This document shows, in pieces, positions 2,854 to 22,314 of a stretch of DNA of 32,000 nt. A program made the position numbers and the translations under genes. Every line of letters begins with the position of its first letter. The first letter of the stretch is position 1. The notes under the pieces are model-generated. The model searched no databases. It saw only the letters and a list, made by a program, of their open reading frames with translations, and was not told the origin of the DNA. The stretch comes from an uncultured archaeon (GTDB lineage Archaea; Asgardarchaeota; Jordiarchaeia; Jordiarchaeales; Jordiarchaeaceae), in assembly GCA_964510585.1 (NCBI GenBank), contig CAZECW010000018.1:5634-37633 (forward strand), written 5' to 3'.

Positions 2854-5502
2854 TTATTCTTCCTCGCTTAGTACTTTTTCAATTATTACATCAATATTCA
2901 CGGATTTGCCGTGATCACTCTTAGAGGGGTCTACACCGTCCTCCCCATACTGGAATTGAATTATGCTCCCTGCCGCATTCCTTACCGTCCTATCATACTC
3001 TACCTTAATGTCCTGAAGCGCATTTATCAGTCTTCTTTGCATGTATCCACTAGTGCTGGTTCTTACAGCCGTGTCTACAAGTCCTTCTCGGCCGCCCATA
3101 GCGTGGAAGAAGAATTCAATGGGAGTTAATCCTTTTTGATAACTTGAACTAACAAAACCTCTTGCTTTCGCACTCAAGTCACCTTCTTCAAAGTGGGGCA
3201 GTGTTCTATTCCTGTATCCTCTCTGCACCCTGCTTCCTCTCACTGATTGTTGCCCAACGCAAGCAGCCATCTGTGCAAGATTAAGTAATGTTCCTCTTGC
3301 ACCCGTTTTTGCCATTATTACTGCATGGTTTTGCATACCAAGGTATTCGCCTGCTACATCACCAGCCTTGTCTCGAGCATTGGAAAGCTCTTGCATAATC
3401 AGCATTTCCAAGGTCTCCTCCAGAGTTCTGCCCGGAAGACTTTCAAGTTCTCCCCTTCTATAAGTTTCAATCAGTTCATTGACTTTAGCATTAGATTCTT
3501 CCAAAATTTCATTTATACGGGAAAGCGCCTCCTTCGTTATCTCTACATCGTCTATTCCCATCGTAAAGCCCTTAGCGGTTATTAGAAGAGTCAACATGCG
3601 TGTAACAGAATCAAGAAAGTCCCTCGCCTGATCCGACCCATAGTCCTTGACGATTCTGTGGAACAGGCTACCCGGCACCCCCGCCCCAAATGCGGCCTTA
3701 TCAATAATGCCAGAAACAAGATTTCCGTTACGAACCACCACAAAATAGTCATACGGGCAATTTTCTTTTAAGCAAGTATCGCATCTTTTACAGATTTTTG
3801 ATTTGAAAGAAAGATTCAGGTCTTTAGGTAGAAGGACACTAAAAATCTGTTTCCCAGTCCAAAGTTCCACTGGACTTTTAATGGCAGGAGGCGGAAGTTC
3901 GGTGCGACCCGCCGCCAAGAGCAGGTCACAAGCATCCTTCCTATTGAAAAACGTGTCCTTCTTTGTGAGCAAATAAGCTGCGGAAATGAAATCCTGAATG
4001 CCACCTATAATTGGGCCTCCGTAGCGTGGACTGAGGATATTTTCCTGAACCCTCATTAAGACATAAGCCTCCGCCCGCGCCTCCTCTCCCTGGGGGACAT
4101 GAAGATTCATTTCATCCCCATCAAAGTCTGCGTTATAGGGAGGACAAACACACAGATTCAACCTAAATGTTTTGAAAGGCATCACACGCACTTGATGAGC
4201 CATTATTGACATCCTATGCAGTGAAGGTTGCCTATTGAATAAAACAATATCTCCATCCCGAAGATGACGCTCTACAATAAACCCCACCTCTACCGTATCA
4301 GCGATGGCCTTTCGATCCTTCACAAAACGAAGATCAATCCTCCTCCCATCACTACGAATAACATAGTTAGCACCCGGAGTATTATCCGGCCCCCTAATAA
4401 TCAGCTCCTTCATATCATCAATATTCCACTCAGTTATCCTCTCAGGTATCGTCAGAATTTTTGCAATTTCAACCGGTACACCAACCTCATTTATTCCAAG
4501 ATTAGGATCGGGAGATATAACAGTCCGCGCAGAAAAATCAACTCTCTTCCCAGAAAGATTGCTCCTAAATCGACCCTCTTTCCCCTTAAGCCTCTGCGCA
4601 AGAGTACGCAGAGCCCTACCAGACCTGTGTCTCGCGGGAGGTATCCCAGACATCTCATTATCAAAATAGGTGGTAACATGATACTGAAGTAACTCCCACA
4701 AATCCTCTACTATAAGTTGTGGCGCCCCCGCCTCAATATTCTCCCTCAAACGCTGATTAATACGAATAACATCAACAAGCTTATGTGTAAGATCATCCTC
4801 AGAACGAACACCCGAATCCAAAGTAATACTCGGACGAACAGCTACCGGAGGCACAGGTAATACAGTGAGAACCATCCACTCCGGCCTAGCATATTTAGGA
4901 TTTATACCCATTAAACGACAATCACTATCAATAATCCTTTCACACCTATCCCTAACATCGCTCGGAGTTAAACGTATAGAACCTATATCAGTCTCCTCAT
5001 AAAAAGTAGTAGGCTTCTCTAAACGAATCTTAAGCTGTTTTTCCCCACAATGAGGACAAGTACTAATTCGAGAAGCCCTCTTAATAACCTCAGCCGCAAT
5101 AGCATCACTCAGAGTCCCCATCTCCCTCTCATACGCATCCATCTGCTCCGTAAAGACTTTAATTTCATCCTCAGGCAAAAGAAGACGCGAACAAGAGCGA
5201 CAAGTAGCCCTCAAAATCTTTTGAAGAAGCTTAGCAAACGCCTCATGAATAACAGGCCTCGCCAACTCAATATGACCGAAGTGGCCCTGACACTCGCCCA
5301 CCCTTGATCCGCAAGTACGACAGCGCCTGCCTGGTTCTATTGTTCCTAGTCTGCTGTCCATCAGTCCTGAGTCTATTGGAGCTCCGTCCTCATCGTAGGT
5401 GTCGGGTGTGATTATTCTGGTGACGGACATTCTTCGAATCTCGTCGGGTGAAAGTAGCCCGAATTTTATCGAGTCAACGACTTTGGGCAGTCTGAATGCC
5501 AC
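2854..5502 (-). CDS. rpoA1: DNA-directed RNA polymerase subunit A' (Rpo1N)
   Basis: Catalytic NADFDGD motif, N-terminal zinc-binding CxxC motifs, GGREGLVDTAVRT; 882 aa, GTG start. Confidence 0.99.
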   Translation of the reverse strand: MAFRLPKVVDSIKFGLLSPDEIRRMSVTRIITPDTYDEDGAPIDSGLMDSRLGTIEPGRRCRTCGSRVGECQGHFGHIELARPVIHEAFAKLLQKILRATCRSCSRLLLPEDEIKVFTEQMDAYEREMGTLSDAIAAEVIKRASRISTCPHCGEKQLKIRLEKPTTFYEETDIGSIRLTPSDVRDRCERIIDSDCRLMGINPKYARPEWMVLTVLPVPPVAVRPSITLDSGVRSEDDLTHKLVDVIRINQRLRENIEAGAPQLIVEDLWELLQYHVTTYFDNEMSGIPPARHRSGRALRTLAQRLKGKEGRFRSNLSGKRVDFSARTVISPDPNLGINEVGVPVEIAKILTIPERITEWNIDDMKELIIRGPDNTPGANYVIRSDGRRIDLRFVKDRKAIADTVEVGFIVERHLRDGDIVLFNRQPSLHRMSIMAHQVRVMPFKTFRLNLCVCPPYNADFDGDEMNLHVPQGEEARAEAYVLMRVQENILSPRYGGPIIGGIQDFISAAYLLTKKDTFFNRKDACDLLLAAGRTELPPPAIKSPVELWTGKQIFSVLLPKDLNLSFKSKICKRCDTCLKENCPYDYFVVVRNGNLVSGIIDKAAFGAGVPGSLFHRIVKDYGSDQARDFLDSVTRMLTLLITAKGFTMGIDDVEITKEALSRINEILEESNAKVNELIETYRRGELESLPGRTLEETLEMLIMQELSNARDKAGDVAGEYLGMQNHAVIMAKTGARGTLLNLAQMAACVGQQSVRGSRVQRGYRNRTLPHFEEGDLSAKARGFVSSSYQKGLTPIEFFFHAMGGREGLVDTAVRTSTSGYMQRRLINALQDIKVEYDRTVRNAAGSIIQFQYGEDGVDPSKSDHGKSVNIDVIIEKVLSEEE

Positions 5503-5603: not shown

Positions 5604-5748
5604 TTCAAGAGAAAAGTTACCCGAGGCATATAAACTTAATGTGTTTGCGTTGCGAATTCGAAGGACGCAAACCAGTTGTTATGGCGTGGTAGTTTTGTGA
5701 AATAATGAGTCTGGAGCTTTAATTTTTCTTTTCAATTTATTAAGCTGT

Positions 5749-7602: not shown

Positions 7603-8964
7603 CTAAAAATTTTCTGCGCCTACTTGGAATATTTGGTAAGCTCTGTAGGGTTCTCGGTCGGTTATCTCTCCACACAGGTTGGTGGTCATTTGTTCATATA
7701 TTTCCTTCATATTTTTTGTGTGTCCTAATACGTAGATTAGTTTTACATAGGCGGTTTCGGGCAACATGTTTTTGCAAGGAATAACTCCAATTTTAAGTAG
7801 GTCTCTTCCCCGTTCATACACGTTCATACCTACGAATCCAAAGAGGCACTGGGAAGTCATGGCTACAGGAATATCTTCCTCCACTGCCCTTTTTAAAGGT
7901 TCTATAATTGTTTTGGGACAGTGCCCCAAACCGGTTCCTGCTAAAACAATCCCATGATATTTTAAGTCTATGAGTTTATGAATAATATCTCCATCCATTC
8001 CGGGATAAGTGTATATCAGCGCCACTCTGGGGTCAAGTTGGGTGTCTAATTTAACTTCGCCTTTCTTAACTCTTTTCCTGTAATCATTTCTAATTATTTT
8101 TATTTCATTATCCTTCACCAAACCTATGGGAATATCTGCAATTGTACGAAAAGCATCCCGTCTGCTGGTGTGCATCTTTCTAACTCTGGTGCCTCTATGA
8201 ATCAAGTTATAGTCGTCGCTGCTACTTCCATGCATACATACAACTACCTCAGCTATATCGCTAAACGCAGCCACTCTGGCCGCAGAGATTAAATTTATCG
8301 CCGCATCACTTGAGGGCCGGTCACTGCTCCTCTGGCTGCCAACTAGAACTACTGGAACTGGCAAATCATTTAACATAAATGACAGGGCTGAAGAGGTGAA
8401 ATGCATAGTATCAGTACCGTGGGGAATGATGACTCCGTCCGCACCTGAGTTTATCTCTTCAGCAACAGTTTCCGCGATTTTTATCCAGTTGTTCGGTGTC
8501 ATATCTTCTGAAAATATTTCGAATAAGAGTTTTGTTTTCAGATTGCAGATTTCTGCAAGTTCGGGAACCGCACTAAAAAGCTCTTGTGGAGTAAAAGCGG
8601 GAATAACAGCTCCGGTTCTGTAATCGAGTCTGCTCGCCACAGTTCCGCCAGTGCCAATCAGAGAGACTTTGGGTTTCTTGGGATCAAACTCAACTTGTAT
8701 TTCGGGAATGGCGTAAAGTCCTGGCTTGTAGCCTAATTCTTTAATTTTTGTGTCTTCTGTGACTCTCACACCTATATTGTATCCAGTATCTAGTTTGAGG
8801 ACTAGGTGCTTATCATCACCCATATCACTTCTTGGGAGTAGTATCCCTCGGTATGTTGCTTCGGGGGTAATTACTTCGATTTCGCTCCAAATTCTAACTT
8901 TAGCGGTCTCAAGTTTTTTCCTAACAAATCCCCAGTATCCTTGCAGCTCCTCCTTTACCGTCAT
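7603..8964 (-). CDS. gatD: Glu-tRNA(Gln) amidotransferase subunit D
   Basis: KLDTGYNIG N-domain plus asparaginase-like TGGTVASRLDY, HGTDT and SQRSSDRPSSD motifs. Start overlaps the gatE stop (ATGA). Confidence 0.97.
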   Translation of the reverse strand: MTVKEELQGYWGFVRKKLETAKVRIWSEIEVITPEATYRGILLPRSDMGDDKHLVLKLDTGYNIGVRVTEDTKIKELGYKPGLYAIPEIQVEFDPKKPKVSLIGTGGTVASRLDYRTGAVIPAFTPQELFSAVPELAEICNLKTKLLFEIFSEDMTPNNWIKIAETVAEEINSGADGVIIPHGTDTMHFTSSALSFMLNDLPVPVVLVGSQRSSDRPSSDAAINLISAARVAAFSDIAEVVVCMHGSSSDDYNLIHRGTRVRKMHTSRRDAFRTIADIPIGLVKDNEIKIIRNDYRKRVKKGEVKLDTQLDPRVALIYTYPGMDGDIIHKLIDLKYHGIVLAGTGLGHCPKTIIEPLKRAVEEDIPVAMTSQCLFGFVGMNVYERGRDLLKIGVIPCKNMLPETAYVKLIYVLGHTKNMKEIYEQMTTNLCGEITDREPYRAYQIFQVGAENF

Positions 8965-10916
8965 TGTTTTCCCTCCAATATTTTTACTATTTTTTTACGG
9001 AGAACTTCAGCCACTACTTTTCCGTCAATTTTGCCTCTTACCTTTTCCATCACTTTGCCCATCATGGGACTAAACGCCCTATCCCCACTTTTTTCTATAA
9101 AGTCCCTGCTTTCATAGAGCATCTCGTCGATTATTTTTTCAAGTTTCTCAACTGTAATGGTTTCCAACCCTAATTCTTTAAGGGCGTCACTGACACTAAT
9201 TGAGGGGGATTTCGCTAGTTCTTGTAGAATGTTTTCCACTGCTTCTTTTGCTATTTTTCCTTCTGATAGAAATTTGAAAACATCTTTAATTTTTTCTTCG
9301 GAGATATTGTCTGTTCGGAAGCCCTCCCTCTCCAGAGATTTCATGGTTTGAAGCAAGGTTACAACAACAATTGTTGGATCTATTTTGTATTTCTCGACGA
9401 TATCCATAAACAATTCCATTTTCCCTGACGCCATTAATTCTTCTACGAACTCTTCTTTTATCTTGTACTTTTCAGCAAGGCGTTTCTGAGCCACCCAAGG
9501 ATATTCAGGTAACCTCTTACTAATTGCTGCAACCCTTTCCTTTTCTATGACCAATGGGGGGGTATCTGTATCGGGATATAAACGCGCCCCGCCATGTAAC
9601 TCTCTTAAAAATTCACTGTTACCATTTTCTAACGCTCTCCTAGTTTCCCTCATCACGCCCTTCAGGGCGCCCTTAGCCCTATCAACAACATTCTCCAAGG
9701 CCTTTTCCGCCGTGTCCGCATCACCTATAACGATTGCGTAAGCATCCATTTCCCCCAGTGCAAGAAGATCACGTATCTGGGAGTTCTCCTCCGCACTGAT
9801 GTTATATTTGCTGAGGTTTTCATCAGAGTGAATGATGCCTTTTAAACCAGTGATTATCATAACTTTCTCTGCTATTTCTTTTCCAAAACTCTTCCCTGGC
9901 TGAATCTCTTTAGATAAAAGTCCCGCGAATTTTGGAAGTTTTACCGCTAATACGGTTTCATTAGCCTTCCTATTTTTGATAATCTTACATTTGGTGGAGG
10001 CGAAAATCTGGGAAACATCTTTAAAATCTTTAGAGAAGTCCGTTTCCTTCACACCACGATTCAACAACTGATTCTTAATATCAATTAGTGCAAGTTGTCT
10101 CAGTACTTCATTCTCAGCCAGTTTAGGTATCCAATCCAATTTTTGTACTCCTTTAATTTCCACACGCTCTCCGCCCTCTATACTCACATTTAAATCCTGC
10201 CTAATGGTTCCGAGCCCCCTCTTAACCTTCCCTGTCGCCCTGAGAAGCATTCCTATCCTGTAAGCTACTTTGAGAAGCTCTTCTGGATTTTTAATTTCAG
10301 GCGCCGTAACAACTTCAACCAGAGGTATACCTAATCTATCAACCCTGTAATAAACAGTGCTTTGCTCCTCACGGATTTTCCTAGCCGCATCCTCCTCTAT
10401 ACAAATAGTAGCTACTCCAACCTTCCTACCATTAATTGGAATGTAGCCCTCTGTTCCAATAATTAATGTACGCTGAAATCCACAAGGAACTGACCCGTCA
10501 AGATAATTTTTGCGAAGGACATGTAACTCGTCTATAATCTTTGCATTAAACAATAGGGCAATTTCTATACCTATATCTATTGCTTCCTGAGATATGCTAA
10601 AAGGAGGAGTTTAATGCTTGTATGCGTCCTACATACAAGTTTCATCTATCTCGTAAGTACAATTAACATCATCAAATCCTTCATAAACAATTGTACGCCC
10701 CTTTTCATACTCAACAAGCATTGCTTCGTCATACTTACCCATCTCGCCCAAAACAGGTCTAAAGAATCTTTTAACCAGAAACTGTGGTTCATCGGTCTTC
10801 AGAACAGGTTTACAGAAGCAAAAAAGTTTGCGACTGGTTAAAAGCTCCTGGTGAATCTCGATCCCGGCCTTGAATCCCAGTTTATCATAGTCGAGTTGTA
10901 TTGCGACCACCTCCAT
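8961..10916 (-). CDS. gatE: Glu-tRNA(Gln) amidotransferase subunit E, interrupted by a 30-nt intron; join(10641..10916, 8961..10610)
   Basis: ORF 10629..10931 (DYDKLGFKAGIEIHQEL..KLFC) and ORF 8961..10553 (RK..DGS..GFQRT, YRVDRLGIPLVEV, GGARLYPDTD) share one frame. Removing 10611..10640 gives ...YEIDETPPFSISQEA... and about 640 aa. Start is ATG 10916 or ATA 10901. Confidence 0.93.
10611..10640 (-). other. BHB-type mRNA intron in gatE (30 nt)
   Basis: mRNA reads GAUG-AA^A-CUUGUAUG-UAGGACG-CAUACAAG-CAUU-AA^A-CUC. The 4-bp helix is GAUG/CAUU, both bulges are AAA, and the intron stem is 8 bp. Cutting after the 2nd bulge nucleotide removes exactly 30 nt, including in-frame UAG and UAA. Confidence 0.88.
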
Positions 10917-11089
10917 TTTTGGAGTTTTCAAATTATTAGTAGATTATAGCAATATTAATAATACCCTTTACCTCATAAGAATGTATCATTCTAAAAACAT
11001 TTTCCTTAGAAAAATTCAAAGTATTTATAACTAATTTTGTAACTTAGTCAAATTAACACTCTAACTATCAGCCAAGGTGATAAAAATTC

Positions 11090-20810: not shown

Positions 20811-21035
20811 TTGTAAACACTCCTTATTAGGGAATCAAAAACAACAAAACACCAAATAAACTTTACGTACAGCATTTAACAGCAAAAAACAGTAAAACCA
20901 ATAAAAAAATAAATATATCGCCCATTTTCACAGAAAACAAATAAATATTCTAAGAACTCTAAACTAAAAGGTAGCTAAAATTCACAAAAATTGAGAAAAA
21001 TGTTAAAATGAAGATGCCGGGGTAACCAAGTGGAT

Positions 21036-21055
21036 CACGTTATAGGCGTACAAAA
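21036..21055 (+). other. tRNA intron 1 (D-loop, 18-20 nt, relaxed BHB; exact ends uncertain)
   Basis: The D-loop is about 18-20 nt too long and contains an ACG/CGU hairpin. Two relaxed BHB registers fit: 21036..21055 or 21037..21054. Confidence 0.7.
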
Positions 21056-21064
21056 ACGGTGCAG

Positions 21065-21089
21065 ATACTTACTAGTGTAGTTAGCACAA
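21065..21089 (+). other. tRNA intron 2 (anticodon stem, position 29/30, 25 nt)
   Basis: GUGC-AG^A...GCAC-AA^G forms a perfect 4-bp helix with two 3-nt bulges. Removal makes CAG+GC = CAGGC, complementary to GCCUG. Confidence 0.88.
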
Positions 21090-21097
21090 GCCTGGAG

Positions 21098-21109
21098 AAT
21101 ATCCTAGTA
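21098..21109 (+). other. tRNA intron 3 (canonical position 37/38, 12 nt)
   Basis: CUGG-AG^A-AUAUC-CUAG-UA^A; helix CUGG/CUAG. Removal restores a 7-nt anticodon loop. Confidence 0.88.
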
Positions 21110-21143
21110 AGCCTGTGGTCCGAAAGGATCGCGCGAGTTCGAA

Positions 21144-21171
21144 AGGAAAATATTTATTATTTACCCGAGTG
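21144..21171 (+). other. tRNA intron 4 (T-loop, position 59/60, 28 nt)
   Basis: UUCG-AA^A-GG...CC-CGAG-UG^U; helix UUCG/CGAG flanked by the T-stem. Removal restores UUCGAAU. Confidence 0.9.
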
Positions 21172-21263
21172 TCTCGCCCCCGGCGCCAATAACTACCCTT
21201 TTCAGTGGCCGGAACATATTTTGACTTGTTAAAACTAGGTAGGAATAACTGGATTTTGGATGC

Positions 21264-22314
21264 TTATTCCTCAGCTTCCTCGCTTCTGTCGTGTTTTTTC
21301 CACATAGGAGGGTAGGTTCCCGGCTCCATTAAGACACGGTTTATTTCCACTGCAACCCCGTGGTTTGAGGTGTACATTTCTTGACTGCTCATTTTTGCTA
21401 TTCCCAATGCTACAGCTTCATTTTTAAGCGTGAAGATTGAAACTAGATCACCAGCTTTTATTTCGCTCTCTAGTTTAACTATTCCAGGAGCGGTTAGATT
21501 TGCACCGTGACAAAGAGAATCTACGGCAGAGTCTCGTATAAAAATTTTAGGTATATGCTCCAGTGCATTTTCCATTGGTTGTATAATTTTTCTTAGGAAT
21601 GATTCGTCTCCATCTTCCTTCCAGAAATGGTAAGCATCAACGAGGTCGTATAGGTTTGTTATAGTATCTTCTTTGAAAGGCCCTGTTCGGGTGCGTCTGA
21701 GTTCTCTCATATGGGCGCCACAACCTAAAACCTCGCCGATGTCGTGGCAGAGCTTCCTTATGTAGGTGCCGGCCTCACAACCAACACGCAGGAGCCCATT
21801 TCTACCCTCTACTTCGTTTAGTTCAATATAGTATATTTCCCTAATCCTCACCCTCCTTTTAACCGAGGAGCGGAGCGGTGGACGCTGATAAATTTGTCCC
21901 GCAAACTCGTTTACAACTTCTCTCAATCTACTTTCAGACACATCCCCGTGCAGCCGAATTACACAAACATACTCTTTCCCAGCCGGAAGGAGAGCTTGAA
22001 CTACTTTAGTTGCAGATTCTAAAGCCACAGGAAGCACACCTGTGACTTTGGGATTTCACTGCCTCCTATGCTTCTGAAGGAAGCTCTAGTGTCCCAGCGT
22101 GGCCTGCCTTCTTAACATTCAAGATTTTTTTGACCCAGCTAACCACTTCATGTGAAGTGGGACCCGGAGGCTTGTCAATATTGACTATCCCGTTTTTTAT
22201 ATAATCTTCTATTTGACGTTCGTTGGGTGGAGTTCCATACTCCGGATTAGTGACCACGTTAGCCTTCTGGAGCATCTCTCTTTTCTTGTCGCTGGGTAAA
22301 AAACGCTCGACCAT
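21264..22314 (-). CDS. cbf5: Cbf5 H/ACA RNA-guided / tRNA psi55 pseudouridine synthase, with a 31-nt intron; join(22086..22314, 21264..22054)
   Basis: ORFs 22066..22314 ([19 protein letters not shown]) and 21264..22037 ([16 protein letters not shown] domain) join as [18 protein letters not shown] after intron removal; 339 aa. Confidence 0.96.
22055..22085 (-). other. BHB mRNA intron in cbf5 (31 nt)
   Basis: GGGA-CACU-AG^A-GCUUCCU-(10-nt loop)-AGGAGGC-AGUG-AA^A-UCCC is a full hBHBh' motif. It splits the GAU codon of the catalytic Asp and contains an in-frame UAG. Confidence 0.95.

Follow-up and report, generated by a model that had tools for sequence, protein, structure and literature searches.

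The window analysed here is a stretch of 32,000 nucleotides (nt) from an uncultured archaeon of the Jordiarchaeaceae (Asgardarchaeota, Jordiarchaeia; assembly GCA_964510585.1, contig CAZECW010000018.1, forward-strand positions 5,634 to 37,633), and positions are counted from its first letter. Its minus strand carries gatE (8961-10931, including an insert), a gene for one subunit of the GatDE route to Gln-tRNA(Gln), which is broken by 30 nt at 10611-10640 that very probably represent an archaeal bulge-helix-bulge (BHB) intron. The upstream piece, putative exon 1 (10641-10916), ends with GAU GAA (Asp-Glu) and corresponds to positions 3-88 of the NCBIfam GatE profile; its start codon is probably the ATG at 10916-10914, with a TTG at 10931 likewise in frame. 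The downstream piece, putative exon 2 (8961-10610; 549 codons and the stop), opens with ACU CCU CCU (TPP) and matches positions 90-628 of the GatE equivalog profile with an E value of 1.8e-187. Downstream, and overlapping the gatE stop by 4 nt, lies the partner subunit gene gatD (7603-8964, minus strand; GatD equivalog, E 5e-171), which forms one operon with gatE.

Read through the break, the gatE frame gives ...NCTYEIDE, then TCM*DAYKH*, then TPPFSISQEA..., with the two stops (TAG at 10631-10629 and TAA at 10613-10611) inside the insert. Removal of the 30 nt turns the two profile matches into a continuous one, so that the extra nucleotides from 10640 to 10611 are the sole defect of the gene. 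The resulting junction, 10641/10610, reads GAU GAA|ACU CCU and encodes ...YEIDE|TPPFS..., which aligns without gaps to intron-less GatE proteins. The reading frame and profile match thus bear out what the original prediction had described from the letters, namely a 30-nt in-frame insert with UAG and UAA in the DExPP motif, whose removal at this junction gives DETPP. The insert is found nowhere else in the genome, hence it is not a repeat, and it is flanked on both sides by the direct repeat AAAC(U).

The minimum free energy fold of 76 nt around the break (-13.1 kcal/mol) contains, from the outside inwards, a GAG/CUC helix, a 3x3 internal loop, a GAUG/CAUU helix, two AAA bulges and a 9-bp stem; the elements named in the original prediction were all recovered, except that its inner stem had been given as 8 bp. 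The 5' strand of the central 4-bp helix, GAUG (10643-10646), is exon sequence made of the Asp codon and the first base of the Glu codon, and its 3' strand, CAUU (10613-10616), is intron sequence. The 5' bulge (10640-10642) and the 3' bulge (10610-10612) are both 3 nt long, with predicted cuts between 10641 and 10640 and between 10611 and 10610, respectively. The inner stem-loop (10617-10639; CUUGUAUGU / GCAUACAAG, 9 bp with a 5-nt loop) provides the inner flanking helix h'. In GAUG-AAA...CAUU-AAA, two 3-nt bulges thus frame a central helix of 4 bp. If each bulge is cut behind its second nucleotide, as had been predicted, the GatE profile match becomes continuous and the alignment free of gaps.

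Across 41 related genomes, a search with the GatE profile located breaks, seen as stops or split matches, at profile position ~88 in three groups. The gatE site is interrupted in all six genomes of the host genus, by 30 nt each, and in all five genomes of a sister family of Jordiarchaeia, by 29, 30, 30, 31 and 35 nt. In a second Asgard class, probably Atabeyarchaeia, the gene is interrupted 5 nt upstream of this site in 3/3 genomes (41, 41 and 35 nt), two of which are complete 2.8-Mb genomes, bringing the number of carriers to 14. The remaining Asgard families sampled have uninterrupted gatE genes of ~640 codons; the phylum-wide scan comprised the best 150 matches, and this absence applies to the sampled families alone. 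The 29-, 31-, 35- and 41-nt versions shift the frame, which rules out an in-frame reading of the insert. At every break, an inner hairpin occurs together with a 4-bp helix and its two 3-nt bulges, and all the spliced products can be aligned around E[ILV]D[ED]|[TE]PP, without gaps, with Asgard GatE proteins whose genes have no intron. The helix and bulge geometry is common to 13/13 homologous introns, with one A-C mismatch in relative G006 and one in relative G041. The alignment across relatives that the original prediction had proposed thus found introns at the same site in all the sampled genomes of the two Jordiarchaeia families and at a nearby one in the second class.

Ten distinct Jordiarchaeia versions were used to evaluate covariation. 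Pairing reaches 97.5% in the central helix and 97.8% in the inner stem, values attained by 0/500 shuffles, and it drops to 18-52% when the partners are slid by 1-3 columns. Compensatory double changes occur in 7/13 core pairs, six of them among the nine pairs of the inner stem. In the central helix, GAUG/CAUU becomes GACG/CGUC in the sister family, where a synonymous Asp change from GAU to GAC in the exon is matched by an A to G change in the intron. The 5' bulge AAA is invariant in all ten versions. The significance of the gatE motif comes from this comparison and not from the folding energy of a single sequence.

The introns of the second class were excluded from the pair count, as MAFFT aligned them by coding similarity and not by structure. 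Their central helix is AGGC/GCCU with AGA bulges, and a cut by the rule of the tRNA splicing endonuclease EndA would fall in the Asp codon. The sites of Jordiarchaeia and the second class are at least 2 nt apart even allowing for junction ambiguity, which would mean that the intron was either gained twice or has slid. The gene order also differs, with gatD upstream of gatE in the second class. An in-frame stop lies inside the intron in 13/13 versions, usually a UAG at intron nt 10-12 (UGA in relative G009, and shifted in G006); this conserved stop may guard against the translation of mRNA that has not been spliced, or may simply be inherited from a common ancestor. Separately, G024 belongs to a different Asgard family; its gatE contains a single TAA at another site and an 18-aa N-terminal coding insertion, and has no intron at the DExPP site. 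A BHB-like match in a 46%-identical gatE of Promethearchaeota was dismissed as chance, since it lies inside normal coding sequence.

The sequencing runs holding the locus are mostly hot-spring metagenomes. Contigs from four runs carry the insert without any deletion or joint, among them those of an independent 2025 sample from a hot spring (12 differences over 1 kb) and of a more distant strain (33 differences, 3%), and the insert is also present in a complete circular genome of the host genus. Its occurrence in independent samples and strains indicates that it is not an assembly artefact. The spliced gatE coding sequences show ratios of nonsynonymous to synonymous substitution rates (dN/dS) of 0.06-0.12, at dS up to 1.9, which indicates purifying selection. 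In the 3.78-Mb genome, which is 96% complete, one gatE and one gatB were found, and no glutaminyl-tRNA synthetase (GlnRS) scored above the cut-off, leaving GatDE as the sole visible route to Gln-tRNA(Gln). Both escapes that the original prediction had allowed for, an insert created by assembly and a second intact gatE, are thus closed, the first by the contigs of the four runs and the second within the limits of a 96%-complete genome.

In public records, all the gatE entries from Jordiarchaeia and the second class are truncated, at 428-572 aa, and are accompanied by a separate upstream open reading frame (ORF) of ~90-100 aa, while other Asgard GatE proteins have 634-735 aa. A search among 5.8 billion proteins recovered no full-length, RNA-derived GatE of this clade, its close relatives being all truncated gene calls. 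These truncated records are a systematic mis-annotation caused by the intron.

Genes for the enzymes that could remove such an intron were found in the genome. There are two EndA paralogues (C157 and C126), one of which has the catalytic Tyr, His and Lys residues (judged by eye) and is closest, among solved structures, to the catalytic chains of the Aeropyrum pernix and Pyrobaculum aerophilum heterotetramers. The second paralogue is divergent and lacks the catalytic His, and the pair fits the (alpha-beta)2 type as far as homology tells. This class is described in published accounts as accepting relaxed motifs, and has been linked there to cbf5 splicing. The ligase RtcB is also encoded, and at the gene level the host would thus combine RtcB with an EndA of a broad-specificity type, (alpha-beta)2 or epsilon2. 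Two runs labelled as metatranscriptomic are probably DNA; their contigs carry the insert without the joint and are uninformative on splicing.

Similar inserts were found in other genes. In the window, cbf5 (about 21297-22284) contains a BHB intron of 31 nt at 22055-22085 on the minus strand, with a CACU/AGUG helix, AGA and AAA bulges and a 7-bp inner stem; it splits the catalytic Asp codon of the GTLDP motif, and its excision gives GTL-D-PKVTG. The rtcB gene itself has, between LPD and AHQGYGFPIGG, a 30-nt insert with a TGA (contig C58, about 3762-3791). The helix of this insert is CCCG/CGGG, its bulges are ACA and AAG, and its inner stem is weak; the ligase mRNA would therefore need the ligase for its own splicing. 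These two genes provide an independent check of the cut rule, which restores the catalytic Asp in cbf5 and LPDAHQGYGFPIGG in rtcB, while other offsets would give a wrong residue.

A homology census was carried out with tblastn, using the ORFs of a complete, intron-poor Asgard genome of 1.42 Mb (G011) against the genome studied here. Among 890 ORFs with matches at E<1e-20, 22 loci had short stop-containing or frame-shifting inserts. In 12 of these inserts, two 3-nt bulges accompanied a 4-bp helix without mismatches, and removal restored the protein exactly. The 12 genes are gatE, cbf5, rtcB, tyrS, ahcY, ppsA and those for an eL42-like ribosomal protein, a 2-oxoacid oxidoreductase-like protein, a PIMT-like protein, an aconitase-family protein and two others. 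The nine inserts other than those of gatE, cbf5 and rtcB are 28-33 nt long and map to C4:20568, C4:22119, C20:52146, C56:9204, C72:43826, C73:5719, C180:1144, C181:4183 and C187:67036; one of the nine genes encodes a small conserved protein. The 5' bulge begins with A in 12/12 of these introns. A mirror-image control on the 22 inserts gave 10 matches for the true geometry and three for its mirror, which is supportive but not clean. The original prediction had counted gatE as a second essential mRNA in need of tRNA-type splicing; the gatE case stands, but the count was understated, as cbf5 and at least 10 other protein genes carry similar inserts. It appears well supported by the sequences that splicing by protein enzymes would be routine for perhaps 1-2% of conserved mRNAs in these close relatives of eukaryotes.

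A homology-free, genome-wide scan for the BHB motif combined with ORF joining was discarded as noise (358 matches for the true geometry versus 328 for the mirror-image control). Elsewhere in the window, a 173-nt segment on the plus strand (21016-21188) has complementary ends like those of a tRNA acceptor stem (GCCGGGG...CCCCGGC, then GCCA); ARAGORN and Rfam searches of the window found nothing, including no tRNA.

The gatE break therefore combines a structure with compensatory changes, exact protein restoration, purifying selection on the spliced sequence and a genome that encodes the processing enzymes. In the mechanism proposed here, the exon GAUG would pair with the intron CAUU in the pre-mRNA, exposing one AAA bulge on each strand, 4 bp from the other, beside the 9-bp intron hairpin. 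A two-subunit EndA would cut both bulges behind their second nucleotide, and RtcB would join the exons as GAU GAA|ACU CCU, allowing synthesis of a full-length GatE of ~645 aa with the junction-spanning peptide …YEIDETPPFSISQEA…. Translation of unspliced mRNA would end at the in-frame UAG, which is the fourth codon of the intron. We infer from the sequences that gatE mRNA is cleaved and ligated in the cell, and that this splicing is constitutive.

Several observations weigh against this interpretation. The motif departs from the strict hBHBh' form, its outer exon helix GAG/CUC being set behind the 3x3 loop. This helix is 76.7% paired across the ten Jordiarchaeia versions, has no covariation and is disrupted in relative G001 and others; it is not conserved, and the motif is accordingly a relaxed HBh' form, in line with the imperfect exon-side helix and relaxed bulge-helix-loop (BHL) substrate anticipated in the original prediction. 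Such a motif requires a broad-specificity EndA, which homology alone suggests for this host. The folding energy of the gatE region (z -1.55 versus shuffles) is not significant for one sequence, and the sequences used for covariation are related, amounting to roughly 5-6 independent variants. Moreover, none of the runs holding the locus is on record as RNA.

Recoding, in which the RNA would remain uncut and the ribosome would either bypass the insert by hopping, in the manner of T4 gene 60, or read through its stops, for instance with TAG as pyrrolysine (Pyl), is a very improbable explanation. The AAAC(U) direct repeat, the hairpin and the early stop superficially resemble a bypass element, some relatives have a single TAG only, and Pyl use in Jordarchaeia has been proposed (PMC9723677). 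Nevertheless, readthrough is contradicted by the TAA that the genome studied here (G000) has besides the TAG, by the frame-shifting lengths found among the relatives and, for Pyl, by the lack of a PylS above the cut-off in this genome; the locus does not present a single recodable stop together with Pyl or selenocysteine machinery. Hopping fits no better, because the stop lies three codons past the would-be take-off codon instead of directly after it, matching take-off and landing codons are missing in G006 (31 nt), and the codons ACG and ACU differ at the wobble base in relatives G007 and G008; matched codons with an adjacent stop, as in a bypass element, were thus not found. Bypassing would also leave unexplained why two 3-nt bulges are kept 4 bp apart with compensatory changes, and why cbf5, rtcB and other genes have the same motif.

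The conserved BHB structure would likewise be unexplained if gatE were a split gene, whose N-terminal (~100 aa) and C-terminal (~530 aa) fragments were translated separately and assembled into an enzyme. Gene callers annotate two pieces in all the public records, and split genes are known in some archaea, but the first in-frame downstream start, a TTG at 10553, is 19 codons into conserved sequence, no restart is conserved, the interrupted motif is the most conserved one, and the intron-encoded tails vary among relatives (TCM, TYM, MRTR, SNSRSHYRELLA), which makes a split enzyme hardly credible. A pseudogene, or an assembly or sequencing artefact, which two in-frame stops within an otherwise conserved gene could suggest, is already effectively refuted by the recurrence of the insert in independent samples and strains, in the complete circular genome of the genus and in 14 genomes of three families, as well as by the low dN/dS values and by the finding of no other gatE and no GlnRS. 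A BHB intron is thus the interpretation retained for the gatE insert.

That a gene essential for translation should contain a conserved intron, in those archaea that stand nearest to eukaryotes, suggests that mRNA splicing of this kind is not a crenarchaeal curiosity. There is also a practical side, since annotation pipelines blind to introns of this sort give wrong models for essential genes and might list pathways as absent. Two introns 5 nt apart in one motif, together with a synonymous exon change that co-evolves with its partner in the intron, make it possible to study cleanly how coding sequences acquire BHB introns, and how these introns shift position and are retained. As these cells have no nucleus, ribosomes may meet unspliced mRNA, and the in-frame stops in all 13 versions raise the question of how the cell handles it. 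A more speculative idea is that gatE is a node of a splicing-gated circuit, in which mRNAs for functions in tRNA and RNA maturation have BHB introns with conserved in-frame stops (among them gatE, cbf5, tyrS and the ligase gene rtcB itself) and would depend for their expression on free EndA and RtcB capacity, shared with the extremely intron-rich tRNAs. We consider this rather unlikely, and a regulatory coupling of mRNA splicing to tRNA maturation is speculation at this point; if true, the circuit would link the capacity for protein synthesis with the maturation of tRNAs.

The closest known system is the cbf5 BHB intron of Crenarchaeota, for which splicing was shown experimentally (Watanabe 2002; Yoshinari 2006; Yokobori 2009, PMC2738675). 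According to Schwarz 2020 (PMC7714728), cbf5 mRNA is the only reported coding-sequence example, besides the case in a 5' untranslated region (5' UTR) described in that study. No paper describing an intron in gatE, or introns in Asgard mRNAs, came up in full-text literature searches, in agreement with the statement in the original prediction that no gatE intron was known to it. As in crenarchaeal cbf5, the gatE intron is a short BHB/BHL intron in a coding sequence, in a host with a two-subunit EndA, its excision restores a conserved motif, and its presence varies among related lineages through gain and loss. It differs in the gene, in its occurrence in an Asgard phylum (Jordiarchaeia and the second class), in its weak outer helix and in that splicing is deduced. 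The interrupted cbf5 of this window (22055-22085) extends the crenarchaeal cbf5 intron to an Asgard archaeon.

Extreme tRNA intron loads have been reported in Freyr-, Jordi- and Atabeyarchaeaceae (PMC11291895; bioRxiv 10.64898/2026.10.13.758758), and mRNA introns go unmentioned in both of these works. PMC11291895 also describes metatranscriptomes for the wetland samples behind the complete Freyarchaeia genome CP147778. The three lineages with gatE introns are probably those with the heaviest tRNA intron load, since the two Jordiarchaeia families match and the third probably does. The gatE intron shares with non-canonical tRNA BHB/BHL introns the 4-bp helix, the two 3-nt bulges, the size range of 12-40 nt, the presumed enzymes and the lineages. 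Unlike them, it resides in an mRNA, the exon half of its motif is constrained by codons (GAY GAA), and a failure of splicing would lead to a truncated protein and not to a misfolded tRNA.

In Haloferax volcanii, a BHB intron in the 5' UTR of HVO_1309 was shown by sequencing of circular RNAs (circRNA-seq) and in vitro cleavage (Schwarz 2020, PMC7714728). Both are cases of mRNA processing by EndA, predicted for gatE, but the HVO_1309 intron lies in an untranslated leader, while that of gatE breaks the reading frame. In eukaryotes, the HAC1/XBP1 mRNA is cleaved by IRE1 and joined by tRNA ligase (RtcB in animals) in a stress-regulated manner. Here too, a short mRNA intron would be removed without a spliceosome by protein enzymes, with a tRNA ligase joining the exons; the gatE intron would, however, depend on EndA/TSEN and not on IRE1, its stem-loop motif is a different one, and homology is not implied. 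Among these systems, the gatE insert is best placed with cbf5, the founding case, as a genuine BHB-type intron that is conserved and lies in an essential mRNA; its sequence and structure strongly indicate that it is excised.
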